Both the position numbers and the translations under genes were made by a program. A stretch of 64,000 nucleotides of DNA from NCBI GenBank assembly GCA_963701565.1, contig CAVPAN010000010.1:445698-509697 (forward strand), given 5' to 3'. The notes beneath the pieces were generated by a model, which searched no databases, had not been told where the DNA came from, and was given only the letters and a program-made list of their open reading frames with translations. Shown in pieces: positions 3,350 through 61,116 of the stretch. Within the stretch, counting starts at the first letter, position 1; the number at the start of each line of letters is the position of its first letter. The stretch comes from an uncultured Microthrixaceae bacterium. Lineage in GTDB: Bacteria; Actinomycetota; Acidimicrobiia; Acidimicrobiales; DATDAH01.

Positions 3350-3721
3350 TCAGTACGGCTCGGCCAGGCCGGCGAACATCGGGTAGTGGCGGACGTTGTG
3401 GGTCGCTAGCGCGGCGCCCACGTGCCGAGTCGTGGCTGCGACCACGAGGTCGGCCACCGCCAGGCCGTGCGAGGCCCGGTACTGCCGCCCCAGCTCACCG
3501 GCCAGCCGGGCGATCGGCTGGGTCACCTCAGCCCAGTCGAGTCCGGCGAAGAGCGCCTCGGCCGCACTTCGCTCCGGTGAACGCAGGCCCCGGATCACCT
3601 CGATGCGGGAGATCTCCGAGCACGTCGGCACCTCGTCCAGCCCGGCCAGCCACCGTCTGGCAGGGGCGTGGCCCCGCAGGACGTCGATCAGGACGGTGGT
3701 GTCGAGGACGACAGGCCCCAA
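3350..3721 (-). CDS. vapC: Type II toxin VapC (PIN domain)
   Basis: 123-aa ORF MGPVVLDTTVLIDVLRG...ADLVVAATTRHVGAALATHNVRHY, with the PIN acidic residues in their usual positions. Confidence 0.85.
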   Translation of the reverse strand: MGPVVLDTTVLIDVLRGHAPARRWLAGLDEVPTCSEISRIEVIRGLRSPERSAAEALFAGLDWAEVTQPIARLAGELGRQYRASHGLAVADLVVAATTRHVGAALATHNVRHYPMFAGLAEPY

Positions 3722-4005
3722 CGGTCCTCCACCACCCGGTCACGATCACGGTCCGTCGCCCGGGCGGTCTCGACGAAGTCCCCGCCCGGGGGCAGGTCGG
3801 GCACCGCTCCGAAGGAGGCGTCCACCGCAGCCTGGAAGCGCCCCAAGCGGGAGTCCGTGTCCTGGCGCCCGCCCCCGATCAGACGATCGAGGGCCTCCCG
3901 GATGAGCTCGGACTTGGTCCGCCGCTGGCGGCTCGCCTGCTCGTCCAGCCAGCGGTGCTGGTCGTCATCGAGGTAGATCTGCGTGCGCCGCACGATGTAT
4001 AGCAT
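3688..4005 (-). CDS. vapB: Ribbon-helix-helix (CopG-type) antitoxin VapB
   Basis: Internal ATG at 4003-4005 of ORF 3688..4218 gives MLYIVRRTQIYLDDDQHRWLDEQASRQRRTKSELIREALDRLIG. It lies directly upstream of vapC and overlaps it. Confidence 0.7.
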   Translation of the reverse strand: MLYIVRRTQIYLDDDQHRWLDEQASRQRRTKSELIREALDRLIGGGRQDTDSRLGRFQAAVDASFGAVPDLPPGGDFVETARATDRDRDRVVEDRWGLSSSTPPS

Positions 4006-4009
4006 ACAT

Positions 4010-4115
4010 CGCTGAATCGAGGATGGCCCGGTGATGTCGATGACCGTCGCGCTGACCCGCCAGGTCACGGTCACCTCGGTGCCGATCAGGCCGGGTGGGA
4101 CCGAGTAGCCGTTGC
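4010..4115 (-). mobile_element. Remnant of an IS21-family transposase (IstA C-terminal segment)
   Basis: The same reading frame upstream of vapB reads GVSVGNGYSVPPGLIGTEVTVTWRVSATVIDITGP. This resembles the conserved IstA block (...gnrYsvP..l.G..v.vr.....v.i). There is no start and no remainder of the gene. Confidence 0.3.
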
Positions 4116-4172
4116 CCACACTGACACCAGAGCGTTGTCCGCGACCTTGTGGACCCGTGCCAGCTCGGCCGG

Positions 4173-6221
4173 TCAGCGCCCCGACACCACCCCACCGAGG
4201 CCGACTGCGTCGCGGCACACCGCGGCGAGGGTGGCCTCCCAGTCCACAGGCCGGTAGTGCAGGAACAGCGAGGCGTAGTACCGGCCCCGCAGCGGGGTCG
4301 GGCGGCTGTGGGGCAGCTTGGCGCTCTCATAGAGCAGCATCTGGCCGGGCTCGAGCACGATGTCGTGGGCCCGGCCGGCTGCGTCCTCGATCCGCAGGGG
4401 CCAGGGCTCGTCGGTGTCGGCGGCGATGTGGACCACGGAGCTGATGACGTGGGTGGCCACCCGGTCACAGTGCCGATGCAGGGTCTGGCCCTCGCCGTAG
4501 AGCCGGATGCCGTAGGCGGCACTCGCGACCAGGGGGCCGCCGTACCACTCCTCGTGGAGCTCCTGCATCTCCTGGAGGATCTCCTGGCCCGCCTCCCCCA
4601 CCGGGATGATCGACGGGTCCCCCGACGGGAGGTAGGTGGCGTCGCTGTGCTCCGCCTCGGCCCGGTCCCGGTTGTCCTCGAACAGCGAGCGCAGGCGGGC
4701 GTGGACCGCGGGTGGCGTGTCGATCACCCGGAAGCCGTCGGCCGTGCGCGTGGGGACGAGCTCGTGCTGGCGGGCGGTGAGGGTGTCGGCGTCTCCGGAG
4801 AAGACGGAGTCGACGGGCAGGGCCCTGCGAGCCCAGAAGACGACGGTGAACCGCTGGTCGGCGAAGTCCAGGGACTCGGCGTCGACCGGGCGCACCTCGT
4901 GGAACGCGTCACTGCGGAAGAAGACCAAGCGGTTGTCGAGCGGCGCGATCTCGGTGTATGTGGCCACGGGGTCGATGACGCCGCCCCGGTCGACGGTGTC
5001 GAAGAGGCGCAGGGCCCCGCCGGAGAACCGCCGCGGCTCCCGGTTGAAGTAGTAGACGGCGCTGACCACCCGGGTCTCCGTGTCGGGGCTGCCGGCGTCC
5101 GTGTGGAGCGTGAAGTGGTCACCGGGACCGTGGACGGTGAGCTGACGTTCGATGTGTTGCAGGGAGAACCAGGGGACGTCGAGCTCACGGCGCACGTGGG
5201 GCAGGAGCCGGGTGATCGGTCCTTCGAAGAGGTCCCAGACCTCCGCGAGGTCGAACAGCGTCTGGGAGCGCCGGAGCTCCAGGTACGGGCCGCCCGAGTC
5301 CTCGTCGGGCCGGGTGACGCCGCTCGCCACGAAGTCCGCTTCCCGGGCCAGGGCGAAGGTCAGGAGGCGGGCGTGACCCTCCGGGTCGAGGAAGTCGTCG
5401 AACTGGACGAAGCGGGGGGCGACCGATTCGGGCTCGGGTGGCTCCGCGACGCCCACCGGATCGGGCGGCGACTCGGGCTGGGGGACCACGACCCGTTGGG
5501 CCCGCTCCAGGATCTCGGCCGCGACGTCGGCGGCCTCCGGACGGGGGCCACGGAGCGTGAGCACGTGCTCGGCCAGCCGGGTGACGAGGGCACGGGTCGC
5601 CGGCGTGGTGGCCGGCGGCGCCACCAGGTGGCCGAGGAGCGGGAGGACCGCTCGGGCCCCGGTCACCTCGGCGGGCTCCCAGTCCACGCCGTCGACGAAG
5701 GCCGTGTCCACGATCGCCGCGATGGGGAGGGCGGGCCGATCGGCCCCGGGCGCCTGTCCCTCCATCGGGCCGATCGCCATCGGGAGCACCCGCCCCGAGG
5801 GCTCGATGGCGACGAGGCCGTCGGCGTAGAGGTCGGCACCGGCGGCGACGAGCGCGCCCAGAAGGGTGGACCGACCCGAGCCGGCGGGCCCGAGGACGAC
5901 CACCGCCTGTGGCCCGGCGGCGACGACACCGGCCCGGACGATGACCGTTCCCGGGCGGAGGCGGACGACGATCCCCGGCAGGTCGGCGACGAGCTCCGCG
6001 ATGGCCGTCTCGGCGTCGACCTCCCGGCGCAGACCGCCGTGGTCCCGTTCCAGGTCGTACAAGCCGGGGCCCTCGGCGGTGATGGCGTAGTGCAGGTCGA
6101 CCCGGCCCCCCGAGGTGGAGGGCGGGGGACCGTCGACGGCGGCGCGCCACACGGCGACGAGCTCAGGCGGGAGCTCGACCTCGACCTGGATGCCGCCGAG
6201 GCCCAGCGACAGTGGGCTCAC
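4173..6221 (-). CDS. Tri-domain fusion: HprK-related P-loop kinase-like domain + two 2OG-Fe(II) oxygenase (prolyl 4-hydroxylase-type) domains
   Basis: 682-aa ORF. The N-terminal part has VVLGPAGSGRSTLLGALVAAGADLYADGLVAIE, an HPr-kinase C-domain-like P-loop. The middle part has FTLHTDAGS...RLVFFRSDAFHEVRPV...RFTVVFW (HxD...H...R). The C-terminal part has LHRHCDRVATHVISSVVHI...LLYESAKLPHSRP...GRYYASLFLHYRP (HxD...H). Confidence 0.8.
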   Translation of the reverse strand: MSPLSLGLGGIQVEVELPPELVAVWRAAVDGPPPSTSGGRVDLHYAITAEGPGLYDLERDHGGLRREVDAETAIAELVADLPGIVVRLRPGTVIVRAGVVAAGPQAVVVLGPAGSGRSTLLGALVAAGADLYADGLVAIEPSGRVLPMAIGPMEGQAPGADRPALPIAAIVDTAFVDGVDWEPAEVTGARAVLPLLGHLVAPPATTPATRALVTRLAEHVLTLRGPRPEAADVAAEILERAQRVVVPQPESPPDPVGVAEPPEPESVAPRFVQFDDFLDPEGHARLLTFALAREADFVASGVTRPDEDSGGPYLELRRSQTLFDLAEVWDLFEGPITRLLPHVRRELDVPWFSLQHIERQLTVHGPGDHFTLHTDAGSPDTETRVVSAVYYFNREPRRFSGGALRLFDTVDRGGVIDPVATYTEIAPLDNRLVFFRSDAFHEVRPVDAESLDFADQRFTVVFWARRALPVDSVFSGDADTLTARQHELVPTRTADGFRVIDTPPAVHARLRSLFEDNRDRAEAEHSDATYLPSGDPSIIPVGEAGQEILQEMQELHEEWYGGPLVASAAYGIRLYGEGQTLHRHCDRVATHVISSVVHIAADTDEPWPLRIEDAAGRAHDIVLEPGQMLLYESAKLPHSRPTPLRGRYYASLFLHYRPVDWEATLAAVCRDAVGLGGVVSGR

Positions 6222-6246
6222 GGACGGGAGCGGCGCGGGTCAGGCG

Positions 6247-6861
6247 TCAGCCGGTGGAGGCGGGCCGGGCGGCGACGGGACCTTCGCCGTCGTTGTCAAC
6301 GTTGTTCGGGTCGACGTTCGGGTCCGGGGTCGGTGCCGGCGTGGGGCCCGGCACGGGTGCCGGCGTCGGAGCCGGGTTCGGCGCCGGCGTCGGCTGCGGA
6401 TTCGGCGCCGGCGTCGGCTGCGGATTCGGCGCCGGGGTCGGCTGCGGGTTCGGCGCCGGGGTCGGCGGGATGCCCGCCGCCGCCTGCTGGGTCACGGTCA
6501 CGATCGACTCGACGAAGGGCAGTGCCGCGGCCGCGGCCGCGGTCAGGCCCAGCTTGGCGATCAGGCGCCGTCGTCCCATGCCGGGGGCGCCGGCTGCGGC
6601 CAGTTCGATCAGGCCCGCGTCGACCAGTTCCTCGATGGCCAGTTCCACCACCTGCTGGTCGGCGGGCAGCCCGCTGGCCTCGGCCAGGCGCGGCACCATG
6701 TCCGCGAGGCTGGTGGCGCCGTCACAGAGGTCATAGACGGTCGCTGCGGTCTCGTTGAGGGCAAAGGCCTCTGCGGAGATGTCGTTGAAGACGAGCAGTT
6801 CGTTGTTGGTGCGTTCCACCAGAAGGCCGTCGATGCGCTGCGGGCGGGCGGTGGGATCCAT
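6247..6861 (-). CDS. PqqD-like (RRE-type) domain, then a twin-arginine/hydrophobic segment, then a proline-rich (PTPAPNPQ)n tail; candidate substrate of the neighbouring enzymes
   Basis: 204-aa ORF. Residues 10-85, LLVERTNNELLVFNDISAEAFALNETAATVYDLCDGATSLADMVPRLAEASGLPADQQVVELAIEELVDAGLIE, are PqqD-like. GMGRRRLIAKLGLTAAAAAALPFV follows. The tail is IPPTPAPNPQPTPAPNPQPTPAPNPQPTPAPNPAPTPAPVPGPTPAPTPDPNVDPNNVDNDGEG. Confidence 0.8.
   Translation of the reverse strand: MDPTARPQRIDGLLVERTNNELLVFNDISAEAFALNETAATVYDLCDGATSLADMVPRLAEASGLPADQQVVELAIEELVDAGLIELAAAGAPGMGRRRLIAKLGLTAAAAAALPFVESIVTVTQQAAAGIPPTPAPNPQPTPAPNPQPTPAPNPQPTPAPNPAPTPAPVPGPTPAPTPDPNVDPNNVDNDGEGPVAARPASTG
6377..6470. repeat. 24-bp tandem repeat (about 4 units) encoding PTPAPNPQ
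   Basis: ttcggcgccggcgtcggctgcgga occurs twice exactly (6377-6400 and 6401-6424), followed by two slightly diverged units. Confidence 0.9.
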
Positions 6862-6898
6862 CCGAGGAACCTACCACCGCGCGGCACGGGGCCGGGGC

Positions 6899-7996
6899 TT
6901 ACGGGCGCACCTCGGGCCATTCACGCATCCAGGCGTGGACGTCGGAACTGACGGGATAGTCCAGGCGGTTCCAGCTGTAGCGGCCTTCGCGGACGGGCTG
7001 ATACTCGGCCGCCTCGAACCGGCACGATCCGCGGAGGAAGTCGGCCGTGAACCAGAAGGCGGCATCGGGGTCCCGCAGGCACCGCTCCCGGTGGATCATC
7101 CCGGTGAACGTGCTGGAGAAGGTCCCGGCGAAGCCCTCGGCGAGTACGGCGACCTCCTGGCTCACCGCCGCCAGCGCACTGTCGTCATGGCGGGGCAGGG
7201 CGGCGAAGCGCTCGGCGACGGGGCCGCCGTCGAGGATGTGCCGGTTGAGGAAGACGACGTCGGTGAAGTGCTCCAGGAGGGGGGCGAAGAACCCCGAGGT
7301 CGGGTCGGCCTCGGTGCAGACCACCAACCGCTGGTCCGCCCGAAAGCGTGCCGCGAGGTTGTCCCGGACCTCCCAGGGCATGACCCGGCGGGCGTCGGGC
7401 ACGCCGATGAGGTGGTCGGTGCGACGGATGTGGGCCGCGTTGTACTCGCCCAAGCCCTCGCTCAGGGCGGCGCCGAGGTCGCGATAGGGGGCACGGAGCC
7501 GCACGCCCTCCAGGAGGGTGAAGAGCTCCCGGCGGCGCCGGGGGTTCAGGAAGAAGACGTAGGAGTAGTACCCGAGGGTCCGTCCGGGGACCTCGAGCAC
7601 CGGGTCCTCGGCCCATGCCGGATCGAAGCTCACGACCGGGCGCCCGTGGGCGAACTCAGCCCGGTTCTCGTCGTCCTGCCCGGCTCCCTGGGCGTCGGTG
7701 ACCATGATGGCCGAGCAGTCGGGCCAGTCCAGGACCCGAGCGGGGCCCGCTGCCTCGGTGGCGAACGCGGCGGTGTCCAGCACCGGCACCGGTAGCTCGT
7801 AGAGGTCGATCAGCCTCGACGGTCGGCCGGCGGCGTCGCCCGTCAGCGCCGGCCTCGGGCCCCACCCGATGGGCTCGTCGACCGGCAGGGCCAGCCGGCG
7901 CCCGCTGAGATGGGCCAGGCCGATGGCCACCTCGAGGGCCATCCGCTTGTTGGAGAGGTAGCCGGGATCCAGACCGACCCGCAGGATCGCGGTCAC
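6899..7996 (-). CDS. GDP-fucose protein O-fucosyltransferase-like glycosyltransferase (O-FucT family; GT65/GT68/GT106-type fold)
   Basis: 365-aa ORF with GYLSNKRMALEVAIGLAHLSGRRLALP (compare GGLNQQR....A..LN.TLV.P). It also has the HxRRxD-type motif AAHIRRTDH and GFAGTFSSTFTGMI (compare F.GT..STFS). No signal peptide or TM segment is visible. Confidence 0.7.
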   Translation of the reverse strand: MTAILRVGLDPGYLSNKRMALEVAIGLAHLSGRRLALPVDEPIGWGPRPALTGDAAGRPSRLIDLYELPVPVLDTAAFATEAAGPARVLDWPDCSAIMVTDAQGAGQDDENRAEFAHGRPVVSFDPAWAEDPVLEVPGRTLGYYSYVFFLNPRRRRELFTLLEGVRLRAPYRDLGAALSEGLGEYNAAHIRRTDHLIGVPDARRVMPWEVRDNLAARFRADQRLVVCTEADPTSGFFAPLLEHFTDVVFLNRHILDGGPVAERFAALPRHDDSALAAVSQEVAVLAEGFAGTFSSTFTGMIHRERCLRDPDAAFWFTADFLRGSCRFEAAEYQPVREGRYSWNRLDYPVSSDVHAWMREWPEVRP

Positions 7997-8043
7997 CCCG
8001 GGATCCTACGGGCGGGGCCCGCCCCCCTCGGTAGCCTCGCTCG

Positions 8044-9033
8044 GTGCCGTCCCGGGACGCCTCGAAGATCTTCGTCGCGCTGGCGTCCTACTGTGAGCCG
8101 GAGCTGGCGCTGACCATCGAGGACTGCCTCGCCCGGGCCGCCCGGCCCGAGCGACTGACGTTCGGGGTGCTGCACCAGTTCGACGAGGACGGCGGCCCCG
8201 ACCTCGGCGAGGACGCCCTCGCCCGGTTCTCGGGCGACGACCGGTTCCGCATCGTCACCCGCGACCATCGGGAGAGCCGGGGGGGCTGCTGGGCCCGCCA
8301 CCACGTCCAGGGCCTCGAGGACGGCGAGGCGTTCACCCTCCAGGTCGACGCCCACACCCGCTTCGCCGACGACTGGGACGACGAGCTGATCACGATGGCT
8401 GCCGACACCGGCGCCGAACGGCCGCTCATCACCGGGTTCCCCCCGCTCTACCACCGCGTCGACGACGTCGATGTCCTCGATCGGGGCGACCGGGACCCGG
8501 TGCCGTCGGTGCGAGTGACCCACTGGTCCCCCGAGGGATGGATCGACCACCCAACCGAGATCGTCGACCACGGCGTGGCGCCGCCGCGACGGACCCGGGT
8601 GCTGTCGGGCGCCTTCGTCTTCGCCCCCGGCTCGTGGAGCCGGGACGTGCGCCAGGATCCCGGCTTCCTCTACACCGGCGAGGAGTTCGCGTTGACCCTG
8701 CGCTCCTTCACCCACGGCTTTGAGCTCTTCCAGCCGGCCCGGGTCGTGGTCTGGCACCGCAACCATCCCCAGCCGAACCGCAAGTGGATCAGCGACGCTG
8801 ATCGACCGGCGGTCGACCAGCGCCATCAGCGGGCGACGGCTCGACTGCGGCTGCTCCTGGCCGGTGACCCCGACGGGCGGCTCGGGACCTACTCCCTGGG
8901 GCGACGCCGCACCCTGGAGGACTACCGGCGGTTCTCGGGCCTCGACTGCGCGAACCGGACCATCCATCCCGATGCCTTCCGCGGGATCCCGCCCGACCCG
9001 GTGACCGTCCCCGACGACGCCGACTGGCAGTGA
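8044..9033 (+). CDS. GT60-like 'GlcNAc' glycosyltransferase (Skp1 hydroxyproline GlcNAc-transferase Gnt1 family)
   Basis: 329-aa ORF with IFVALASYCEPELALTIEDCLARAARPERLTFGVLHQ and FTLQVDAHTRFADDWDDELI, matching the family signatures IFVSIASYRD.EC and Q.DSH..F...WD. It is divergent from the O-FucT-like gene across a 47-bp gap. Confidence 0.75.
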   Translation: MPSRDASKIFVALASYCEPELALTIEDCLARAARPERLTFGVLHQFDEDGGPDLGEDALARFSGDDRFRIVTRDHRESRGGCWARHHVQGLEDGEAFTLQVDAHTRFADDWDDELITMAADTGAERPLITGFPPLYHRVDDVDVLDRGDRDPVPSVRVTHWSPEGWIDHPTEIVDHGVAPPRRTRVLSGAFVFAPGSWSRDVRQDPGFLYTGEEFALTLRSFTHGFELFQPARVVVWHRNHPQPNRKWISDADRPAVDQRHQRATARLRLLLAGDPDGRLGTYSLGRRRTLEDYRRFSGLDCANRTIHPDAFRGIPPDPVTVPDDADWQ

Positions 9034-9044
9034 CCGCCGGGGGC

Positions 9045-9944
9045 TCAGCGCTGTTTGGTGGCGACGAAGTCCCGCAGGATGACGAGGAGATCGCGGCAGT
9101 AGTCCAGCCGGGCGTCCTCGGGGTCCACGTCGATCGGGGTCCAGGGCCGGTAGCCCTGCTTGAACCACAGGGTGGCGCCGTCGCGGTCCTCGATCGGTTG
9201 GCAGTAGTGGATGATGGGGGCGCCGGCGACGGCCTCGTCGGGCCAGTTGGTGAACGCGCCGAGGGTCCGGGGCGTCCAGGTCAGGCCCTGTTCCGCCGAG
9301 GCGGCGATGAAGGCGAACATGTCGCTCTCCCAGGCGCCGACCTCCTCGCGGGCGATAGCGGTGAGCTCGATCCAGCGAGGCAGGAGGGCCTCCGAGATCT
9401 CTCGGTGTGGACCAGCGCCGGCCAGGTGATGCCCTGCATCGCCGTCGGGTCCACGCCCGTCTCGCGGGCCAGCACGTCCAGGGTGTCACCGCCGGCGTGG
9501 AAGCCGTACCAGGGTTGGGCGATCGGGGCCCCGGGGACGACCCGGGTGGGCACCGGCGCCCGGAACACCATGTCGGGGTCGAGGAACAGGACGGTGCCGA
9601 CGGGCTGTTCGGTCTGGAGCCATTCCAGGGTCGAGAACAGGCGGTTGTAGGGCACGTAGTGGTCGCCGGTGCGGGGGTGGACGTTGGGGGCCCGGGTCGC
9701 CACCACCCGGGCGTGGCGGTGGGTCGGCAACGGCCCGCCCTGGGGGGCGGCGACCAGGCGGACGAGCTCGCCGGGCTGGGCCACCGCGTGCCAGGTGTGG
9801 GCGAGGATCTGGACCTGCCAGTTGGCGTAGGCCTGGGTGTCGGTGGCCACGATCGAGTAGATCGGCTCGACGTCGGGCGGCGGGCCGGGGTCGGCCACGG
9901 CGGCTTCGGGCACCGGGAGGTCGCGGACGATGCGGGGGCCCCAT
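9045..9944 (-). pseudogene. Hydroxyproline O-arabinosyltransferase (HPAT, GT95)/SGT1-like glycosyltransferase, interrupted by at least one frameshift
   Basis: Frame 1 reads PIYSIVATDTQAYANWQVQILAHTWH...DHYVPYNRLFSTLEWLQTEQPVGTVLFLDPDMVF...ITWPALVHT. After a shift near 9395-9405, frame 2 reads EISEALLPRWIELTAIAREEVGAWESDMFAFIAASAEQGL...APIIHYCQPIEDRDGATLWFKQGYRPW. Block order and motifs parallel plant HPAT1. The start is uncertain (GTG 9913, or ATG 9944 if a second shift is present). Confidence 0.7.
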
Positions 9945-10038
9945 CCCTCCGTCGGACTTCGGCCACAGGAGGTACTGGGTCGCCGGGGCGGCCAGCTCGA
10001 GGTCGAGGCTGAGGACCCGGGTGCGTCGGACGAGCAGC

Positions 10039-11130
10039 TCAGGGCTCGGTCAGGTCCCGGCGGAACAGCTCGGTGCCGTCGGCGTCCATGAGCGTGAACA
10101 CCCAGACCTCGTAGTCGTCCCGTTCGGGGACCGCGTCGGTGTCGAGGCGGACGATCCGGCGGAACCGCTCGGGCCGACGTTCGTCCCGGGACCGGCGCCG
10201 GGCCGCGAAGTCGACGCCGGCCTACGCCTCGTACTCGGCCACCGTGCGCACCGGGCCCAGCCCGTAGGGCTCGAGCGAGGCGGCGTCGCCGAGCAGCAGG
10301 GTCTCGATGCGAGCCCGGCCCCGCTCGTTGGCCTGCTGCCTGGGTGTCGCTGTGGTCGGTCCAGTGCAGCGGGGCACCGTGGTCGTAGTGGTGCCAGAGG
10401 AGGTTCTCGTTGGGATGGCGCAGGTCATAGCCGTGGGTGAAGGCCCGCACGGCCAGGGTGATCTCCTCGCCGGAGAAGTACAGCTCAGGGTCATAGGGGA
10501 CGTCTTCACAGAACCGGCCCAGGGTGAAGATCATCCCGGCGGCGACGAAGGGGCTCGGCCCGGCGCACGGTCGGGTCGGGCGCGGGATCGCCCTGCTGCA
10601 CCGTGGTGAGGTCGGCCCGCAGCTCGACCAGGCCGAGCCGCTCGATGCCGGTGTCGGGGTCGAGCACGTCCCGGCCGTCGCGGCGCCAGTAGGCCTTGGG
10701 GTAGCCGGTGATCAGCGGCCGGTCGGCCTCGATCTCCGCCAGCATGGCGATGAACCGCTCGTCCCAACCGGGGGCGAAGCGGGTGTGGGCGTCGATCTGG
10801 AGCGTGTAGGCCTCACCGTCGTAGAGCCGCCCGACCCGGCTCCGGGCCCAGCAGCACCCCTGGCTCTCGACGGTGGGGCACCGCATCGATCCGGAACCGG
10901 GCGTCGTTGGCCCAGGGCCCCAGGTCGTCGACCGTCTCGTCGTCGTACTGGGCGCAGATCCCGAACCGCAGCCGCTCCGGCTCCGCCGCCTCGGCCAGGG
11001 CGCTGGCGATCGTCCGCGGCAGCTCGGGGTCACGGTAGGACGCGATCTGCACGAAGATCTCGGTCCGGCCCGCCACCCGGCCGAGCCTACGGTGACGCTG
11101 CGGTCCCGGACCCCGGCGCAGCCAGGACAT
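10039..11130 (-). pseudogene. Second GT60-like GlcNAc-transferase paralogue, decayed (three frameshifts plus an in-frame TAG)
   Basis: IFVQIASYRDPELPRTI...RFRIDAVPHR, then a shift (~10866-10875), then ESQGCCWARSRVGRLYDGEAYTLQIDAHTRFAPGWDERFIAMLAEIEADRPLITGYP. A shift at ~10548-10556 leads to FVAAGMIFTLGRFCEDVPYDPELYFSGEEITLAVRAFTHGYDL. A shift at ~10331-10350 leads to QANERGRARIETLLLGD...RTVAEYEA. TAG at 10222-10224 is followed by AGVDFAARR...VWVFTLMDADGTELFRRDLTEP. The whole is collinear with 8044..9033. Confidence 0.7.
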
Positions 11131-11179
11131 CGGCCATCCCGGTCACCCCGCTCATCGGCAGCAGTAGCCTGCCCGGGGC

Positions 11180-11983
11180 ATGGCGGCACTGGTCCCCGGG
11201 GGTGCCCCGAACACGGTCGACGCACCGGTCGGCGGCGGCCCCGCCGTCCGCTTCGTGCAGATCTTCGGCGAGCGGTGCTCGGGGACGAACTACCTCGCAC
11301 GCCTGATCGACAAGAACTTCGGCCCGGTCGAGATCACCACGTCGTTCGGCGGCAAGCACTGGTTCATCAAGGGTCATGAGCCCCGGGGCCGACCGAATCG
11401 ATCGACCGACCTCGAGTGCGTCCGGCGCCTGACCGACGGCGACGACACCCTGTTCCTTGTCATCTTCCGCGATCCGATCGACTGGCTGCGCTCCCTTCAC
11501 GCCCGGCCCTACCACGCGCCGGGGCACTGGAACCTCTCCGTTCGCCGACTTCATCCGGAAGCCGTGGATCTGCTGGGAGCCCGAACGGGCCAATCCCCTC
11601 TGGCCCGGGCCGGGTCCCTACTTCATCGAGGACGCCGACAACGTCGTTCGGCTGCGCAGCCAGAAGATCCGGCATCTCACCGACCTGGAGGGGACGGTGG
11701 CCAACGTCGCCTTCGTGACCTACGAGGCGTTGGTGGACGATCTCGGCGCCTTGGCCGAGGATCGCCGACAGGTTCGGCATCCCGCTGAGCCATCGGCCGT
11801 TGCTCGACGAGACGGCGCTACTTCGGCCAGGCGGAGCGGGCAGACCGTTCGTCGGGCCTCGGACCTACCCGCCGGTCGCCCGCCGGGACCTTCGGTTCAT
11901 CCTTCAGCAACCTCGACCACGACCTCGAGGCGAGCATCGGCTACGACCTGCCGGCCGACGCCGGGGGCGAAGGCACCGCCTGA
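11180..11983 (+). pseudogene. Sulfotransferase-like gene with about three frameshifts
   Basis: RFVQIFGERCSGTNYLARLI resembles a 5'-PSB-like motif and FLVIFRDPIDWLRS a 3'-PB-like motif. The coding sense jumps frame near 11534-11546, 11755-11770 and 11898-11906. The gene ends ...SNLDHDLEASIGYDLPADAGGEGTA* at 11981-11983. Confidence 0.55.
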
Positions 11984-11985
11984 TC

Positions 11986-12936
11986 GTGAGCGGAGGCCCA
12001 CAGGATCCGCCGATTTCGGCCGGCGGTAGTCTCTGGCCCTTGGATCCCGAAGGGCGAGCGGCCGCTGACGGCCCACCGCCCCCTCGGTTGGCCATCCTGG
12101 TGCTGGGCTGCCGGCTACCGGTGTATGACCGGTGCATCCACGCCATACGTTCGACGTGGGGCGCCCGCCCGCCTGTCGATGTCGACGTCCTCTACCTCTA
12201 CGGCCGACCGATCTCCAGCGGCCAGGAGGGCATCGACCTCGGTCCCGTGATCGGCCGGGCCGAGCCCGACCTGGACGAGAACGAGACCGTCAGGCTGGGG
12301 GACGTCATCCTCTGTGGGACGGGGGACGTCTACGCCGATCAGGTCGACTGCATCCTGCGCAAGCGGCTGCTGGCCTTCGCCGCGCTGGCGGAACTCGACG
12401 AGTACGACTTCGTCTACACGGTGTGCGCGTCGAGCTATGTCGACGTGTACGAGCTGCGTCGGTACGTCCGGGGCCTCCCGGCGACGGGCGTCTACCACGG
12501 GCCGCTCGGCGTCTGCGGGTTCAGCGGGTACCCGTTCGTGTCCGGCGCATCCCTCTTGCTGTCCAAGGACATGGTCGCTCACCTCGCGGGTGCCGCCGAT
12601 GAGATCATCGCGACCAACGCCGGCCGTCATGCCGATGATGTGGCCATGGGCCGCTGGATCGCCGAGGCGCTGTGTGAGGAGTCCCTGTCGGACATATGCG
12701 ACCGGATCGCGGCGGGTGAGCCCGCCACCCTCGGGCAGGCGTTCGTGCTCCCCAACGGACGGGGGATGACGAACTGGGTCCAGCCGTCCCCCAAGGACCG
12801 GACACCGCACCCGCACGTCTATCACTACCACTTCCACTCCCGGCGAATCGGGGAGCTCGAGCGCTTTCACCGCCGCTTCTTCGCACCCGTCCCCGGTGCT
12901 GGCGACCGCTCAGCGGACCGGGCCGAACCAGCCTGA
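11986..12936 (+). CDS. GT31/Fringe-like glycosyltransferase (the family of plant Hyp-O-galactosyltransferases)
   Basis: LAILVLGCRLPVYDRCIHAIRSTWG (compare ..R..AIR.TWG), YPFVSGASLLLSKDMVAHL and HADDVAMGRWIAE (compare EDV..G..). The DxD position is atypical (SSYVD). The GTG at 11986 is in frame 2 nt after the sulfotransferase stop; later TTG starts are possible. Confidence 0.55.
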   Translation: MSGGPQDPPISAGGSLWPLDPEGRAAADGPPPPRLAILVLGCRLPVYDRCIHAIRSTWGARPPVDVDVLYLYGRPISSGQEGIDLGPVIGRAEPDLDENETVRLGDVILCGTGDVYADQVDCILRKRLLAFAALAELDEYDFVYTVCASSYVDVYELRRYVRGLPATGVYHGPLGVCGFSGYPFVSGASLLLSKDMVAHLAGAADEIIATNAGRHADDVAMGRWIAEALCEESLSDICDRIAAGEPATLGQAFVLPNGRGMTNWVQPSPKDRTPHPHVYHYHFHSRRIGELERFHRRFFAPVPGAGDRSADRAEPA

Positions 12937-13074
12937 GCCGGCCGACGTCGGCGCTCGTTGCGGTCGGAGTGGTCGTCTGGATGCCCGGACCCCGCACGCC
13001 CGGTCCGGCCGGAACGACGCACACGAGTCGCCGTAACCTTCACCAACCTCGTCTTTGTTGAAAGTTGGTATCTA

Positions 13075-13136
13075 TCCGATCGGTTGCTACGAAGCGTTGA
13101 CGTCCACCTCGCGCGCCGCTACCAGGAGGACCGATG
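13075..13136 (+). pseudogene. 3'-terminal remnant of a BrnT-like toxin gene (intact copy at 40063..40374)
   Basis: Nucleotide homology to 40314-40374 starts at tccgatcggttgctacga. A 2-nt length difference breaks the frame (..YPIGCYEA..). Confidence 0.5.
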
Positions 13137-13376
13137 AGCACCACTCCCAAGAAGATGACTCGTCAGGAAGAACACGACTTCTACGCCAAGCCGGAGAATC
13201 AGGAGCCCCAAGGCCCCGCTCGACGTCGGCGAGCCCGCCTCACCGAAGTCGTGCCCGTCCGCTTTCCTGAAGACACCCTCGAAAAGCTTCGTGACCGGGC
13301 CGAGGCTGACGATCGGTCAGTCAGCTCCTGGATTCGGCGAGCGGTCGAACACGAACTCCGTCGCGACGTCGGCTGA
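13134..13376 (+). CDS. Ribbon-helix-helix antitoxin (BrnA/CopG-like)
   Basis: 80-aa ORF ...RLTEVVPVRFPEDTLEKLRDRAEADDRSVSSWIRRAVEHEL. It differs at one residue from 40371..40613. Confidence 0.7.
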   Translation: MSTTPKKMTRQEEHDFYAKPENQEPQGPARRRRARLTEVVPVRFPEDTLEKLRDRAEADDRSVSSWIRRAVEHELRRDVG

Positions 13377-13636
13377 CCAAGTCGCCCAAGACCTGCGGCA
13401 GCCTCCCGACGGCGGAACTCGTCCCCCAGCCGTCGTTCGGTCCGTCGCCGCTACGTGATGGGCACGTCGGACGCTCATCCGATTGTGCGTCGGGTGAACG
13501 ATCTGAAGGTCGATCGGATGGTCGGATCGTGCGCCCGGATGTCGGCCGGCGCGATCGGTCCAGCACAGCAGGCTGTCTGGACCGCGGCGACATGGGTGAA
13601 CGCGGCACGTGAGCGCGCCCTCCCCGCTGCTGCCGC

Positions 13637-14741
13637 TCATGCGCTTCCGACCTTGTGAACGGTGGCCCTGTAGGCCTTGACGGGCCGGCCCTCGGCGTCG
13701 AGCAGGCGCCCAGCGTAAAGCAGCCCGGTGACGACGTGCTGCGGCCTTGGAGCGGCCGCAGTGGGCTCTGTCCCGGAGGCTCACGACGAGCTGGCCGGCC
13801 GTCTGCGTGCCGGGGGAACCGTCGACGACCCTGATGGACGATGGCCTCGAGTTCGGCCCGGCCGGCATCGTCGAGGGTGACCTTCCGCTTCCCACCGGCG
13901 GTCTCGGTTCCTGTCCCCTCGGCCTCGGCGCCCATGGGGGCTTCGGCTCTTTCGACCAGCCGTAGATTTCGTCCCGGCACCGTGGTGGCGCCGAGCTTGG
14001 CGGCGTGGGCTTCGACCTCACCGGGCCCCATGATCCGGATCGAGAAGAACTCCTCGGCGATCACCGCCTTCGTCGGAGTCCAACCGCGGCGCGACCACCA
14101 CGGCCCGGTCACCCTCGACGCCGACGATGCGGGTCACATCGCCGAAACGGGGAAGGCTCTCGGCCACCCGGTGGCCGGACTTGCATTCGAAGACCACCGG
14201 CGCGCCGCCGACGATCGCCACGACGTCGAGCTCCAGCTCGCCGTGGGCCGGGTGCTCGGCTTGGAGGTTGCGGGCGACCTCGGCGTCCTCACCGAGCACC
14301 GACCGCAGGACCTGCTCGACGCCGATCTCGAGCCACGGACCGGCGACGAAGGCCCGCAGGCGGGCACCGGCCTGCGAGCGCTGTGCGTTGAGGCTGAAGT
14401 CGAGCACGGCGTCCGAACGGTTGACCGCCCGGAGCAGCCCGACCGCGGCCAGCGATTGGGCGACGCCGAGGGCCAGCTGGTTCTGGTGCTCGTCAGGACC
14501 GAGCTGGATGCATCCGCTCGACGGCTCCTCCTTCGACAGCTTGGAGTGGAGGTCACCGAGGAGGCGGCCGGCAGGCTCGGAGCGCACCGCGTCAGCGGCG
14601 ATGCGACAGAAGAGGGAATCCGCCGGCTGGAGCAGAGCGCGTCGCCGTTCGGCGAGCTGCGCTCGCTACGAGCCACTGGTCGATGAGCGGCGTGGCGGAC
14701 GGCCTCGTCGATGATCCGGCCGGGACGGCGAGAACGTTCAT
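13637..14741 (-). pseudogene. Decayed copy of the PD-(D/E)xK nuclease-like gene (intact copy at 38777..39877)
   Basis: Homologous peptide blocks are split over three frames (ORFs 14018..14587, 13321..14112 and 13317..14021). Examples are ...ELELDVVAIVGGAPVVFECKSGHRVAESLPRFGDV..., then KAVIAEEFFSIRIM..., then VVDGSPGTQTAGQLVVSLRDR... Confidence 0.65.
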
Positions 14742-15046
14742 GGCTGGCCTCCTGGTCACGAGGGCTACCTAGTGCCCGTGCCCGTGCCGATGTCGGCCCC
14801 GCATCTCGGCGCCCTGAGCTCGTCATCGGGCGGGCAGAGTCGGGGGTTGAGTCCGACCATTTCCGGCTACCCATTCGGGCATCTCGTACAAAGTCGATCG
14901 AGTCATCGGTCCGTCGGCGTCCGCTTGTGGGCGGAGTCCGGCGTCGACCCTTCTGGGCCAGCATCCGATGTCAGTGGCAGCCCTACGAGCGCTCCGCTGA
15001 TCGGACGACCGGCTGGTCGGCCGCTGGCTAGTCCTCCAGCTCAGCT

Positions 15047-15235
15047 TCAGCGCTGGTACTGCGTACCAGCGATAGTGCCCGTGGCCATTGCGAAGGACAG
15101 CTTGGCCTTGTGACCCTGATCCGGGTTTACGGGCTCCTCAGGGATCCGCGGCTCATTTGCGACTGCGTCAGCGATAGCGGACTCCGCAGCGCCCTCGAAG
15201 CCCTCCAGCGACGTCCCTATTCCTCTGGCACCCAT
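15047..15235 (-). CDS. Small protein, weakly dodecin-like
   Basis: 62 aa. GIGTSLEGFEGAAESAIADAV resembles the dodecin N-terminal block (VGTSP.G...A). The rest is not convincing. Confidence 0.3.
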   Translation of the reverse strand: MGARGIGTSLEGFEGAAESAIADAVANEPRIPEEPVNPDQGHKAKLSFAMATGTIAGTQYQR

Positions 15236-15948
15236 CAGGCAACATCCCCCCCGTCATCCGGATCATGCGGCGATCATCGCCGCCATGGCAGTAATCACAC
15301 TTACACCGCTATTTGTACGGATGGGGCACCGGGCGCGGTAACCATTGCACGGACCCCGAATGCGTCGGTCGAGTCGTGGGAGATACAGCCATCGTCGGCG
15401 AGGTGCGCGATCGTGAGTGGCAACCCCTCACTCCTTGCCGACGCTGGCCTTGTCCCCAACGACGACGAGCGGGGACCAACACTGCCGGAGGTGACGGCGC
15501 TTCGCGAACGGATTGGTGTCAGGCGACGGTGAAGGGCACCGCCATGCCGGACGCGACGTGGGGCTGTGCGTCCGCTTCGACGCGGCTGCACTCGACTCCG
15601 CGTCGGAGAAGGCCCAGGTGGCCTGAGGAGCGGTCCGAGTTCCCATCGAACCCTCCCCGCCCCTGCAGTCGAGAGGTCGTCGCACACCTGTCCGGGGCAT
15701 AGCGGCCGCTGGTGCGTCCAGCCCCCAGCGGTCAGGCCCTCCACCGGGGTTTGTCACTCGGCTCCGCCACCGCTGGCAGACAACTTCGGTGCGGTGATCA
15801 ACGATCCCAAACCGCTCGCCTCGGGCCAGACAGCAGCAGCCAGCCGGATCTGCATCTCGCCGTCATCATCCACTGGTGGCGCACCACCTAACCGACCCGA
15901 CCGGCCTCATCCCCTTCTCGGTCCCTTCTCGGTGAGGCCCTGGTCCCG

Positions 15949-57696: not shown

Positions 57697-58006
57697 AGCG
57701 GGCAACTGGGCGGGAGATTGTCGCCCTGGTCGGGCTCGGGCTCGGGCACGTCGACGGTGTCCGACTGCGTTCCGGGGCAGGAGATCGTCGGCCTCGACGC
57801 CCTCGACCGGCGGGAGCCCGTGTTCTCCCGCGAACCGGGCCAGACCGGGTCGCTGTCAGCCGCCGGCGGCAACGTCGTGACTGCTTCCCCGAGCACGGTT
57901 CGGACGACCAGCCCCGTCCCCGTCATCGGCCCCGTCGCCTGAACACGTTCACCGAGGATCTGGGCTTAGGGTCGGGGCGATCCATCACGAGGGAGTGGGG
58001 GCCGGG

Positions 58007-59197
58007 ATGCAGGGCGCGCGGGTCAGGACGAAGGCTGTGGGTGCGGCGTTGGCGATGGCCGTGCTGGTGGTCGCCTGCGGCGGTGACGACAGCGGCGAAA
58101 GCGGCGAGGGATCGGAGTCGTCGCCGACCACCACGAGCCCGCCGACGGTGGCACTGGACGACTACGAGTGGGCCGAGGTGGCCGAAGGGGCGCCCTGGGG
58201 CGGCCGCGCCGGGCTTCGGGTCGTGGACCTCGACGGCACGTTGTTCCTGATGGGGGGCCGCACACCGCGGGACTCGCCCATCCCCGGCGACAGCGACCTC
58301 TGGGGTGACGTGTGGCGCAGCGACGACGGCGGCGTCACCTGGGCGGAGGTCGTGGCGACCGGTGACGCCTGGCCGGAACGGGCGTACTTCCAGGCGGTGA
58401 CCCTCGACGGGTCGATCTACGTGCTGGGCGGACAGAACTTCGCCCTGCCCAGCTCCACCTTCTACAACGACGTGTGGCGCAGCGACGACGGGGCGACCTG
58501 GGAACAGGTCACCGACGCCGCCCCGTGGGTCGGCCGGGCCGGGTTGATGGCCGCGGTCCTCGATGGCCAGATCTACGTCTTCGGCGGTTCCCGCAACGAC
58601 GACAGCGCCGTCGTGGGGCCGGGTGGACCGACACGCGAGTACTTCAACGACGTGTGGCGCAGCGACGACGGGGCGACCTGGGAACAGGTCACCGACGCCG
58701 CCCCGTGGTCACCACGGGCCGGGGGCGCTGCGGCCGTCAAGGACGACCGGCTGTTCCTGCTGGGCGGTGAGGAGGGGTTCGTCTGCTCGCCGCTACCCGA
58801 TTGCGAGCCCCCGTACTTCAACGACGTGTGGTCCACCGCCGACGGCACGACCTGGGAGGAGGTCACCCCGGCGGCGGACTGGTCCTCGCGCCCCGGACAC
58901 CAGTGTGAGGTCCTCGGCGACGAGATCGTCTGCTTCGGCGGGTTCGGCCAGCCCACGAACCCCGTGGACATGTGGTCGAGCCAGGACGGCGCGGACTGGG
59001 TGCTGCTGGACCAGACCCCCTGGAACGCCACGGACCCAGACCAGGTCCGGTACGACTTCGACTCGGTGGTGACCGACCGGGACGGCGGGCCGGCCATCCT
59101 CACCGTCGGCGGCGATCGCGAGACCTTCGACTTCACCGACCCGCTGAACTACACCCGGGTCGATGACGACGTCTGGGCCTTCTCGGCACCGGCCTGA
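58007..59197 (+). CDS. Lipoprotein with Kelch-type beta-propeller repeats
   Basis: MQGARVRTKAVGAALAMAVLVVACGG (lipobox). The blades NDVWRSDDGATWEQVTDAAPW..RAG......G.IYV.GG recur. Confidence 0.75.
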   Translation: MQGARVRTKAVGAALAMAVLVVACGGDDSGESGEGSESSPTTTSPPTVALDDYEWAEVAEGAPWGGRAGLRVVDLDGTLFLMGGRTPRDSPIPGDSDLWGDVWRSDDGGVTWAEVVATGDAWPERAYFQAVTLDGSIYVLGGQNFALPSSTFYNDVWRSDDGATWEQVTDAAPWVGRAGLMAAVLDGQIYVFGGSRNDDSAVVGPGGPTREYFNDVWRSDDGATWEQVTDAAPWSPRAGGAAAVKDDRLFLLGGEEGFVCSPLPDCEPPYFNDVWSTADGTTWEEVTPAADWSSRPGHQCEVLGDEIVCFGGFGQPTNPVDMWSSQDGADWVLLDQTPWNATDPDQVRYDFDSVVTDRDGGPAILTVGGDRETFDFTDPLNYTRVDDDVWAFSAPA

Positions 59198-60961: not shown

Positions 60962-61116
60962 CTCCTCGGGTCCCACACGTTCACGGAGCCTTCCCTGCCC
61001 TGGCGTCGCCCCATGGTGTCAGAGCGCTCCGCTGGAGGCCGCCCTCGGGGCTGCCGCACTCGGCCCCCGGATCGTTGTAGTAGCCGTCCGCCCTATTTTA
61101 GCACTAAACTCGGGTC

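Follow-up and report, generated by a model that had tools for sequence, protein, structure and literature searches.

A gene cluster from an uncultured Microthrixaceae bacterium raises the question of whether a bacterium, too, can attach sugars to hydroxyproline (Hyp). To our knowledge, and as far as we could find, Hyp O-glycosylation is known only from eukaryotes: from the cell-wall glycoproteins of plants and algae, from peptide hormones and from the protist protein Skp1. The cluster lies in a stretch of 64,000 nucleotides of contig CAVPAN010000010.1, the whole of which was analysed and is referred to here as the window (G+C content, 72%). An earlier reading of this DNA, called here the original prediction, had proposed that enzymes encoded at 4173-12936 hydroxylate and O-glycosylate a Pro-rich protein encoded among them. 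The core idea of that prediction survives every computational test able to refute it, and the comparative data extend it. We favour, with a probability of roughly one half, the reading that positions 4173-9913 hold an Acidimicrobiia-specific cassette which modifies one protein, the product of gene ii, by a logic resembling that of pathways for peptides that are ribosomally synthesized and then modified post-translationally (RiPPs). The ii protein would be a precursor with its own recognition domain, and its tail would receive hydroxyl groups on prolines and O-linked sugars while still in the cytoplasm, before being exported. The five genes of the cassette, with the evidence for each in parentheses, are as follows.

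4173..6221, minus strand: gene i, 682 amino acids (aa), an HprK-related pseudo-kinase domain followed by two 2-oxoglutarate (2OG)/Fe(II) dioxygenase domains of the double-stranded beta-helix (DSBH) type (intact open reading frame, ORF; Pfam; AlphaFold2, AF2; Foldseek; alignment of 15 orthologues)
6247..6861, minus strand: gene ii, 204 aa, putative precursor or substrate with a PqqD domain, a twin-arginine signal-like segment and an X-Pro tail (intact ORF; orthologue in every cassette)
6899..7996, minus strand: gene iii, 365 aa, member of the GT-B fucosyltransferase superfamily, protein-O-fucosyltransferase-like, with HIRRTDH at 7412-7432 (profile; fold)
8044..9033, plus strand: gene iv, 329 aa, GT60/Gnt1-like GT-A glycosyltransferase with the DxH motif VDAH at 8344-8355 (Pfam GlcNAc PF11397; orthologue in every cassette)
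9045..9913, minus strand: gene v, GT95/HPAT-like glycosyltransferase with one frameshift at about 9404-9407 (tblastn; Pfam HPAT on the spliced product)

Judging synteny in every locus with enough flank, we observed the same tightly packed arrangement, HPAT> <GT60 iii> ii> i>, in seven orthologous loci (L001, L002, L003, L005, L015, L016 and L017) as well as in the window. The neighbourhoods of these cassettes are unrelated among loci and consist of trp/his genes, 2-oxoglutarate dehydrogenase or toxin-antitoxin genes. The intergenic gaps within the cassette measure only 25-60 bp, which leaves no space for another precursor gene, and ii is the sole gene of the cassette that does not encode an enzyme. 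Relatives of i number 29 among 5.8 billion sequences. A search of 185,579 species-representative genomes with the i alignment located the cassette in 3 of them, labelled Microthrixaceae, Acidimicrobiia and Acidimicrobiales; the same genome scan with the single protein i gave no match, and a metagenome scan gave 4 loci. The labelled loci all belong to metagenome-assembled genomes (MAGs) of Acidimicrobiia, and the cassette appears to be specific to that class. The original prediction had proposed a check for conserved synteny and for profile matches to the named families; the five-gene core does recur, in at least 8 independent loci, and matches to GT60, HPAT, PqqD and 2OG-FeII_Oxy_3 are present. 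Its author also knew of no described bacterial system with this combination, and in the open-access literature we likewise found no description of a bacterial GT60/GT95/prolyl 4-hydroxylase (P4H) cassette.

The three glycosyltransferases belong to distinct families. The assignment of iv to GT60 is confirmed by its match to Pfam GlcNAc PF11397 (2.1e-43, 149.6 bits against a gathering score of 21), and its QVDAH motif is present. For iii, the predicted O-FucT-like identity is upheld by a POFUT-like fold and a profile match, though its Pfam match is below threshold. The protein itself scores 14.5 bits (0.027) against O-FucT PF10250, whose gathering score is 31.5, and its orthologues in L002 and L007 reach 25.2 bits (1.5e-5) and 30.6 bits (3.5e-7), respectively, both still below that score. 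A profile built from 25 iii homologues matched human POFUT2 in the PDB (4ap5, 5.3e-6), and H189, R191, R192 and D194 of the HxRRxD Arg motif are invariant in these homologues. The AF2 model of iii has a predicted local distance difference test (pLDDT) score of 88.3, and Foldseek aligned it to POFUT1, POFUT2, AtFUT1, NodZ and FUT8 at 4e-8 to 1e-4. PDB searches with the single sequences of iii and iv gave no match.

Gene v had been presented as a GT95/HPAT-like enzyme. The family holds on Pfam evidence from the spliced product and from each of the seven orthologues examined, but v is not a single ORF. In tblastn searches with the L001 and L003 orthologues, v falls into two frames; the frameshift lies in the context GAGAGATCTCG, which is not a homopolymer. 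In-frame GTG starts are found at 9913 and 9898, and the ATG at 9944 was rejected as a start, as its frame is not that of the HPAT-like N-terminal part. The spliced product matches Pfam HPAT PF23452 at 1.9e-7 (31.2 bits; gathering score 23.9). Its orthologues, 7 of 7, score at or above that gathering score (23.9-37.5 bits), and no competing family was matched. The absence of signal peptides from the enzymes, another element of the original prediction, was confirmed for i, iii, iv, v and the other enzymes, and transmembrane segments are absent from them as well.

Two kinds of gene accompany the cassette in some of the orthologous loci. One encodes a nucleotide-diphospho-sugar transferase of family PF03407, which we take to be the GT77 family, and lies just upstream of HPAT in L003 (5320-6327) and L017 (4558-5565); it overlaps the HPAT start in L003, and a gap separates the two genes in the fragmented L017. 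This GT77-type gene had been overlooked before. The other encodes an NAD-dependent epimerase/dehydratase (GDP-mannose dehydratase-like) that converges on i and overlaps its 3' end in four loci.

L001 12031-13062; L005 11995-12912; L015 7484-8527; L016 10090-11088: epimerase/dehydratase gene, absent from the window

Such neighbours bear on a reading in which the enzymes would make, or add to, a glycan that is not borne by protein (a cell-wall polymer, a glycolipid or a small molecule, for instance) and in which the link to ii is regulatory or coincidental. Acceptors are not assignable from the sequence of a glycosyltransferase family, the epimerase and other glycosyltransferase genes stand near several loci, and the similarities of iii extend to NodZ and to AtFUT1, a xyloglucan fucosyltransferase. 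However, in three of the four enzyme families (PHD/Tpa1, Gnt1 and HPAT) the members characterised best act on proteins, and the closest solved relatives of iii include POFUT1/2. The conserved core, moreover, has no flippase, polymerase or lipid-carrier gene, and ii is strictly co-inherited with the enzymes. We consider a non-protein product very unlikely.

The favoured reading, modification of the ii protein, begins with protein i, whose parts are the following.

5487..6221, minus strand: i aa 1-245, HprK-related-kinase-A-like domain (weak match to TIGR04352)
5865-5891, minus strand: P-loop GPAGSGRST, without the Walker A lysine (sequence)
4821..5414, minus strand: i aa ~270-467, DSBH domain 1, PHD-type prolyl-hydroxylase-like, with H373-x-D375, H441 in FHEVRPV, and R457-F-T (PDB profile match; invariant residues)
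4242..4739, minus strand: i aa ~495-660, DSBH domain 2, a divergent 2OG oxygenase with H584-x-D586, H638 and R647 (invariant residues; beta-rich model)

Both HxD...H...R sets (H373/D375/H441/R457 and H584/D586/H638/R647) are invariant in the 15-orthologue alignment. Domain 1 matches Pfam 2OG-FeII_Oxy_3 at 9.6e-22, and domain 2 does so below threshold, at 0.015; this Pfam family is common to PHD-type and collagen/plant P4H-type enzymes. When the 15-orthologue alignment was searched against the PDB, domain 1 was significantly similar only to prolyl hydroxylases, namely PPHD of Pseudomonas (4iw3, 3.9e-7), DdPhyA of Dictyostelium (6t8m, 9.2e-7) and human PHD2 (about 3e-6). Domain 2 had no significant match there (best, PiuC at 0.4). 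The AF2 model of i has a pLDDT of 78.6, and its domain 2 region is beta-rich and consistent with a DSBH, with a pLDDT above 90. Foldseek placed Tpa1/OGFOD1 first, in an alignment spanning both domains (7.6e-12), and then PPHD, PHD2 and DdPhyA. Nearly all of the best 50 matches were prolyl hydroxylases, with one oxalate decarboxylase at rank 35, and TM-scores were 0.56-0.71 as normalised to single-domain targets. The domain 1 segment HEVRPV...RFTVVFW resembles HEVQP...RYAITVWY of PHD2. Domain 1 thus appears, by profile and model, to be of the PHD/Tpa1 type and not of the collagen/plant P4H type. The predicted HprK-like and twin 2OG-oxygenase domains are therefore present, the former in degenerate form, but the oxygenases do not appear to be of the P4H type that had been assumed.

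The N-terminal domain of i matches TIGR04352 with 24 bits (1.7e-5) against a cut-off of 200, and the match is confined to aa 91-148. In all 15 aligned i orthologues the Walker A lysine is absent and the loop is degenerate, to the point of being lost in several. An intact GxxxxGKS P-loop is found in the distant relatives L006, L007 and L018; L006 scores 58.5 bits against TIGR04352, and a PDB sequence search with the L018 HprK-like domain gave no match. Because the lysine is missing and the loop is degenerate in every orthologue, phosphorylation by i is unlikely, and with it the phosphorylation of the tail that had been suggested. Homologues of domain 2 ('HTDRVETHIISS...') were also seen elsewhere: in L013 (237-1460), a low-GC marine contig, one is fused upstream of a P4H-type domain, and in L014 (9-1391) one occurs in a eukaryote-like transcript or protein with an N-terminal signal. 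Together with domain 2, they appear to form an unnamed 2OG-oxygenase family.

The candidate substrate, ii, can be divided into three segments.

6577..6861, minus strand: ii aa 1-95, peptide-chaperone domain of the PqqD/RiPP recognition element (RRE) type (Pfam PqqD; TIGR04353)
6472..6576, minus strand: ii aa 96-130, GRRRLIAKLGLTAAAAAALPFVESIVTVTQQAAAG, internal twin-arginine translocation (Tat)-like signal with an RR motif, a moderately hydrophobic h-region and an AxA-type site (family consensus; hydrophobicity)
6250..6471, minus strand: ii aa 131-204, (PTPAPNPQ)n tail, an acidic D/N-rich spacer and a C-terminal ...RPASTG; proposed modification site (tandem repeat; orthologous tails)

The PqqD domain matches Pfam PF05402 at 6.8e-7 (30 bits; gathering score 23.4), and its match to TIGR04353 (2.6e-5, 25 bits) is below the cut-off of 35. 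This domain is common to the ii orthologues, as is the segment GRRxLIxKLGLTAAAAAxALPxVESIVT. Their tails are unlike in sequence. In the window, (PTPAPNPQ)n is encoded by a 24-nt tandem repeat of 4.5 copies at 6359-6466, and among the orthologous tails are repeats of PTPAPNPQ, TPVPVP, APPP, APAP and PFPSPT. Proline nevertheless makes up 27-38% of every orthologous tail, and the X-Pro register is kept. The Ser and Thr content of the same tails ranges from 7 to 27%, and because it drops to 7% while the Pro content is kept at 27-38%, proline is left as the one candidate acceptor that all the repeats have in common. The repeats are followed by an acidic spacer and then by a C-terminal P-x-x-T-G (6250-6290 in the window; often [AS]P-x-F-T-G), which is kept in all cassette-type tails (L002, L003, L005, L015, L016 and L017). 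P-x-x-T-G-COOH is likewise found at the end of larger, unrelated tails in a few members of the family (P0138, P0168, P0179 and P0212; 9 of 173 sequences inspected). We rejected a sortase signal as the explanation of this motif, given that its spacing differs from that of LPXTG/LAXTG and that no transmembrane segment or charged tail follows it.

An exhaustive phmmer search with ii residues 1-125, comprising the PqqD domain and the RR segment, revealed that ii belongs to a large family, with at least 3,329 clusters at 50% identity matching with E<=1e-3, and 293 with E<=1e-10. Architecture was inspected in the best 149 matches. The motif was present in 103 of these, and pooling with earlier matches raised the motif-bearing set to 119. 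These share the consensus [ST]-R-R-x-[LV]-[IL]-[RK]-[KR]-L-G-L, followed by an Ala-rich stretch and LPVVES, with S/T at the first position in 76%. The RR pair is present in 119 of 119 by construction, as the search pattern allowed K or R at its first position; none has K. An AxA lies downstream of RR in 90 of the 119, and RR stands at median residue 97, behind the PqqD domain and not at the N terminus. With a Kyte-Doolittle hydrophobicity of 1.6-1.9, the ii segment appears to match the Tat consensus except for its position behind a folded domain. The PqqD domain and Pro-rich repeats claimed for ii are thus present, but what had been called an RRR-hydrophobic segment is better described as twin-arginine signal-like with an AxA site, and this feature and the large family had both been missed. 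In the open-access literature, we found no description of PqqD-Tat-fused precursors.

The tails of the 103 motif-bearing members are diverse and in their majority not Pro-rich: 46 are Cys-rich, 25 Pro-rich and 4 Gly-X-Y-like. The Cys-rich tails (P0088-P0236) are small, knottin-like and located after the AxA site, and a few other tails carry collagen-like Gly-Pro-Thr/Gly-Ala-Thr triplets. The relative P0039 has an (SPPPP)n tail, the extensin motif, and its gene lies directly upstream of an HprK-like/PHD-like oxygenase (L018) that is 40% identical to i. No glycosyltransferase gene, GT60 and HPAT included, is found near this L018 pair; a PF14907 nucleotidyltransferase gene is nearby. A 353-aa neighbour in L018 was considered as an iii homologue and rejected as not homologous. 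Likewise, the gammaproteobacterium-like locus L006 has a pair consisting of a PqqD-RR-tail protein and an HprK-like/PHD-like oxygenase. Both L006 and L018 match TIGR04352 and TIGR04353 and carry PF14907 nucleotidyltransferases, and one family member is named 'PqqD family protein of HPr-rel-A system' by JGI. Because the pair extends to such distant relatives, the PqqD-RR-tail protein and the HprK-like/prolyl-hydroxylase-like enzyme would form an ancient unit, probably older than the glycosyltransferases; the second oxygenase domain and the three glycosyltransferases may have been added in the Acidimicrobiia branch.

The same family data bear on whether ii is a substrate at all. It could instead be a PqqD chaperone or scaffold, anchored in the membrane, whose role is to offer some other peptide or protein to the enzymes, with the Pro-rich tail as an extracellular spacer. 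The PqqD/RRE proteins of known RiPP systems do bind a separate precursor (PMC7470986), the NCBIfam family is named 'peptide chaperone', and the normal targets of PHD-type hydroxylases are specific proteins such as EF-Tu and Skp1 (PMC7864055). Yet the cassette is accompanied by neither a conserved small ORF nor any further gene for a non-enzyme, its flanks differ in every locus, and the tail of ii ends without any domain, so there is nothing to space. The family tails, moreover, look like products (Cys-rich knottin-like, Gly-X-Y or (SPPPP)n) behind an AxA cleavage-type site. A scaffold role is in our judgement distinctly unlikely, and the case for ii as the substrate is strengthened because it is the sole non-enzyme gene, because its X-Pro tail is hypervariable and because a PqqD-tail/oxygenase pairing is found in distant relatives.

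The analysis shows the gene content, the families and folds, the conserved catalytic motifs, the synteny, and how the ii family is built and varies. For ii as a modified precursor, we infer the substrate, the acceptor residue, the chemistry (Hyp and sugars), the docking and the export route to be as follows. In the cytoplasm, the PqqD domain of ii would dock onto the degenerate HprK-like domain of i, and the two 2OG/Fe(II) dioxygenase domains of i would hydroxylate prolines of the tail. The soluble enzymes iv (GT60/Gnt1-like), v (GT95/HPAT-like) and iii (POFUT-like) would then attach sugars to this tail, joined in some genomes by a GT77-type enzyme, with the epimerase supplying a donor sugar. 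Export of the finished tail would follow, plausibly by Tat, a pathway able to carry cargo that has already been folded or modified. The tail would be cleaved free at the AxA site or else stay anchored, giving a hydroxyproline-rich glycopeptide located on the cell or outside it.

Several observations weigh against this scheme. The usual site of action of PHD/Tpa1-type enzymes is a single specific proline within a folded or defined target, not a poly-Pro stretch. The domain 1 profile gave an insignificant E=0.26 to 6iuq, the sole PDB entry deposited simply as 'prolyl 4-hydroxylase' (subtype unchecked). That the HprK-like domain of i is a docking module is something we purely infer. We know of no precedent for a Tat signal after a 95-residue domain, and the RR segment of ii may instead be a plain membrane anchor. 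The PqqD-RR architecture is not specific to Hyp chemistry, because 46 of 103 tails are Cys-rich and the Pro-tailed L018 protein has no GT60 or HPAT nearby. In the window v is not intact, and all orthologues come from uncultured MAGs or metagenome contigs. POFUTs, the nearest solved relatives of iii, act on Ser/Thr, and GT60 also contains Ser/Thr-directed polypeptide alpha-GlcNAc-transferases (PMC8724618). The acceptor of the sugars could accordingly be the conserved Thr of the C-terminal P-x-x-T-G, or dispersed Ser/Thr residues.

The last of these points is an alternative in its own right, in which the glycosyltransferases act on Ser/Thr, in mucin-type fashion or at the Thr of P-x-x-T-G, and any hydroxylation would only stiffen a polyproline-II tail. 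The Thr-rich tail in the window fits it, as does the conservation of P-x-x-T-G in all cassette tails and some unrelated ones. However, the repeat cores of L002 and L017 have almost no Ser/Thr, and the same three glycosyltransferases are kept there. Tandem prolyl-hydroxylase-like domains are fused within the same cassette, and the HPAT family is known only as a family of Hyp-arabinosyltransferases (Pfam PF23452; PMC5371791). We regard the Ser/Thr alternative as unlikely, and Hyp as the better candidate acceptor. A wider proposal, which we offer tentatively and consider doubtful as a whole, is that PqqD-RR-tail proteins are an unrecognised class of self-chaperoned, Tat-exported precursors. Their cis RRE would recruit cytoplasmic tailoring enzymes and may restrain the Tat signal until modification has taken place. 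The Acidimicrobiia branch, with its GT60, GT95, GT77 and FucT-type enzymes, would then make genuine bacterial Hyp-O-glycopeptides and would be a prokaryotic counterpart, and possibly an evolutionary source or sink, of the Skp1 and plant hydroxyproline-rich glycoprotein (HRGP) machineries.

Whether the copy in this genome works is a separate matter, on which the three genes beyond the cassette and the reading frames of the window bear.

10039..11130, minus strand: gene vi, second GT60-like paralogue, pseudogene with 3 frameshifts and an in-frame TAG near 10222 (Pfam GlcNAc on the spliced product)
11180..11983, plus strand: gene vii, possible sulfotransferase-like pseudogene with 3 frameshifts, window-specific (weak Pfam Sulfotransfer_3)
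11986..12936, plus strand: gene viii, 316 aa, window-specific intact ORF with no family assigned, motifs I and III of GT31 type seen by eye, DxD absent (ORF; sequence inspection)

By six-frame translation we found all of the peptide motifs quoted in the original prediction, and we judged coding signal from the G+C content of third codon positions (GC3). Genes i, ii, iii, iv and viii are intact ORFs with a strong, clean GC3 signal. The count of eight genes holds for these five, but v, vi and vii are frameshifted and had been silently spliced. The gene order is (-,-,-)(+)(-,-)(+,+), not the two divergent blocks that had been described. Spliced vi matches Pfam GlcNAc at 4.3e-58 (197.9 bits) with QIDAH present, and its in-frame TAG falls at a position that a conserved aromatic residue occupies in the paralogue iv. 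It is thus a second GT60-like copy by family, as claimed, but a pseudogene outside the conserved cassette. The sulfotransferase call on vii is weak, with E=0.079 and 13.6 bits against a threshold of 27 for Sulfotransfer_3 in a gene with 3 frameshifts. For viii, we found no match in Pfam even at E<=1 (Galactosyl_T and Fringe included), in NCBIfam or among PDB sequences. By eye, AIRSTWG is close to motif I and DDVAMG to motif III, and the expected DxD position reads TVCASS. The GT31 call is therefore unsupported, with no profile match and no DxD, and the claim that all three Hyp-O-glycosyltransferase families are present stands for GT60 and for a GT95-like enzyme but not for GT31. No relatives of vi, vii or viii were found in any fetched orthologous locus.

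Within about 2.7 kb (9400-12100; v, vi and vii) lie 7 frameshifts and 1 nonsense codon, with the neighbours i-iv and viii intact. In a codon-usage Viterbi scan of the whole window, most coding signal elsewhere runs on until a stop codon. The disruptions are therefore gathered at 9.4-12.1 kb, and this clustering looks like local gene decay beside the conserved cassette. The lesions of vi, vii and v lie in non-homopolymer contexts. The scan argues against general assembly noise as the cause for vi and vii, which are probably true pseudogenes; the single v indel is compatible with either origin and could be a mutation or an assembly error. The long contig of L017 shows many fragmented genes (TrpA as 111 + 184 aa; ii and iii shortened). 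Split genes of this kind are typical of long-read indel errors and call for caution with single frameshifts in related MAGs.

These lesions are the ground for supposing that the locus in this genome is a decaying remnant in which the HPAT frameshift is real and no complete product is made, whatever the ancestral function. Their number, their clustering and their sequence contexts speak for such a remnant, as does a toxin-antitoxin flank of the kind typical of variable regions. On the other hand, the four genes i-iv are undamaged and strongly codon-biased, and the single v indel could be an assembly error, given that related long-read contigs (L017) show split genes. We see a remnant as a serious possibility, if one that falls short of an even chance. 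Under the favoured reading of the cassette as well, this particular copy may be partly inactive, with HPAT frameshifted and vi and vii dead.

The flank just mentioned is a VapBC-like pair (ribbon-helix-helix antitoxin and PIN toxin) at window positions 3350-4218, immediately downstream of i. In L015, a HipA-type module adjoins the cassette. Such toxin-antitoxin neighbours suggest that the cassette is located in variable genome regions. Just past viii, two stretches of about 1 kb each (12862-13836 and 14636-15927) have no coding signal in the codon model and a reduced G+C content, about 67-68%; Rfam and tRNA scans of the window were empty, these two stretches included. Far from the cassette, and with no link to it seen, the window encodes a Kelch-repeat beta-propeller protein and a HEAT-repeat/GT4 glycosyltransferase fusion (57881-59197 and 61108-63198, respectively).

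If the favoured reading is correct, the origin of the enzyme families becomes testable, as prokaryotic ancestry against horizontal transfer, together with the question of whether the cytoplasmic Skp1 pathway is the older form. The cassette would also provide soluble, membrane-free homologues of HPAT and Gnt1 for structural and mechanistic work, and it would represent a new kind of surface or secreted glycopeptide in the Acidimicrobiia, among whose labelled loci is a Microthrixaceae MAG. The ii family, which is large and combines a PqqD domain and an internal twin-arginine signal with tails that are hypervariable, suggests a general export route for peptides modified in the cytoplasm. The precursor architecture would still be new even if the chemistry were Ser/Thr glycosylation.

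Among known systems, the Skp1 pathway of Dictyostelium and Toxoplasma (PhyA, the GT60 enzyme Gnt1, the Gal/Fuc-transferase PgtA and the GT77 enzyme AgtA) shares with the cassette its soluble enzymes without signal peptides. Both combine a PHD-type prolyl hydroxylase, a GT60 enzyme and a fucosyltransferase, and the L003 and L017 cassettes further share a GT77-type enzyme with the Skp1 pathway. By sequence and by fold, DdPhyA ranks with the best matches of i domain 1, and PF11397 is modelled on Gnt1. Whereas the Skp1 pathway acts on a single proline of a folded, conserved cytoplasmic protein, the cassette has as its candidate substrate a tail of X-Pro repeats that follows an export signal. Its hydroxylase is a tandem-domain fusion with a pseudo-kinase domain, its fucosyltransferase-like enzyme is POFUT-like and not GT74, and its GT95 enzyme is additional.

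The HRGP pathway of plants and green algae (P4H, the GT95 enzyme HPAT, the GT77 enzymes RRA/XEG113 and GT31, acting on extensins, arabinogalactan proteins (AGPs) and CLE peptides) resembles the cassette in its X-Pro/Ser-Pro4-type repeats (AP, TP, SP and VP; (SPPPP)n in P0039). As in plants, an HPAT-family enzyme is found in every cassette, and two loci have a GT77-type gene beside HPAT; in plants, the Hyp-arabinoside is begun by HPAT (GT95) and lengthened by RRA and XEG113 (GT77) (PMC5371791). In contrast, the plant enzymes are Golgi/endoplasmic reticulum type II membrane proteins and those of the cassette are soluble; the hydroxylase appears to be PHD/Tpa1-type and not plant P4H-type, and GT31 has no supported counterpart. 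Modification takes place in the secretory pathway in plants and is proposed to precede export here.

The tandem DSBH architecture of i is shared with the ribosomal-protein prolyl hydroxylases Tpa1/OGFOD1. The second DSBH of those enzymes has no iron ligands, whereas both domains of i keep HxD...H...R. The alignments have a high whole-chain root-mean-square deviation, and the N-terminal domain and genomic context differ.

A PqqD-type gene directly upstream of an HprK-related gene is a feature that the cassette has in common with the 'HPr-rel-A system' (TIGR04352 and TIGR04353) and with the HPr-kinase-like tailoring kinases of lasso clusters. It differs from these in lacking a lasso cyclase and a leader protease, in its degenerate P-loop, in the prolyl-hydroxylase-like fusion and in scores far below the equivalog cut-offs, and its PqqD protein itself bears the signal and the variable tail. 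The cassette probably shares ancestry with the uncharacterised HPr-rel-A system. We rejected a lasso peptide or classical RiPP cluster, a reading suggested by the PqqD, HprK-like and sulfotransferase-like genes, as no cyclase, radical S-adenosylmethionine enzyme or comparable class-defining enzyme, leader protease or short precursor was found in the window cassette or the orthologous loci.

The cassette is most like the Skp1 and plant HRGP pathways and is a member of neither, because it differs from them in substrate, in its enzyme fusions, in soluble location and in its PqqD/Tat-like logic, and because GT31 is unsupported. What appears to be new here is the joining of a eukaryote-style Hyp-glycosylation logic to RRE-guided bacterial peptide modification.

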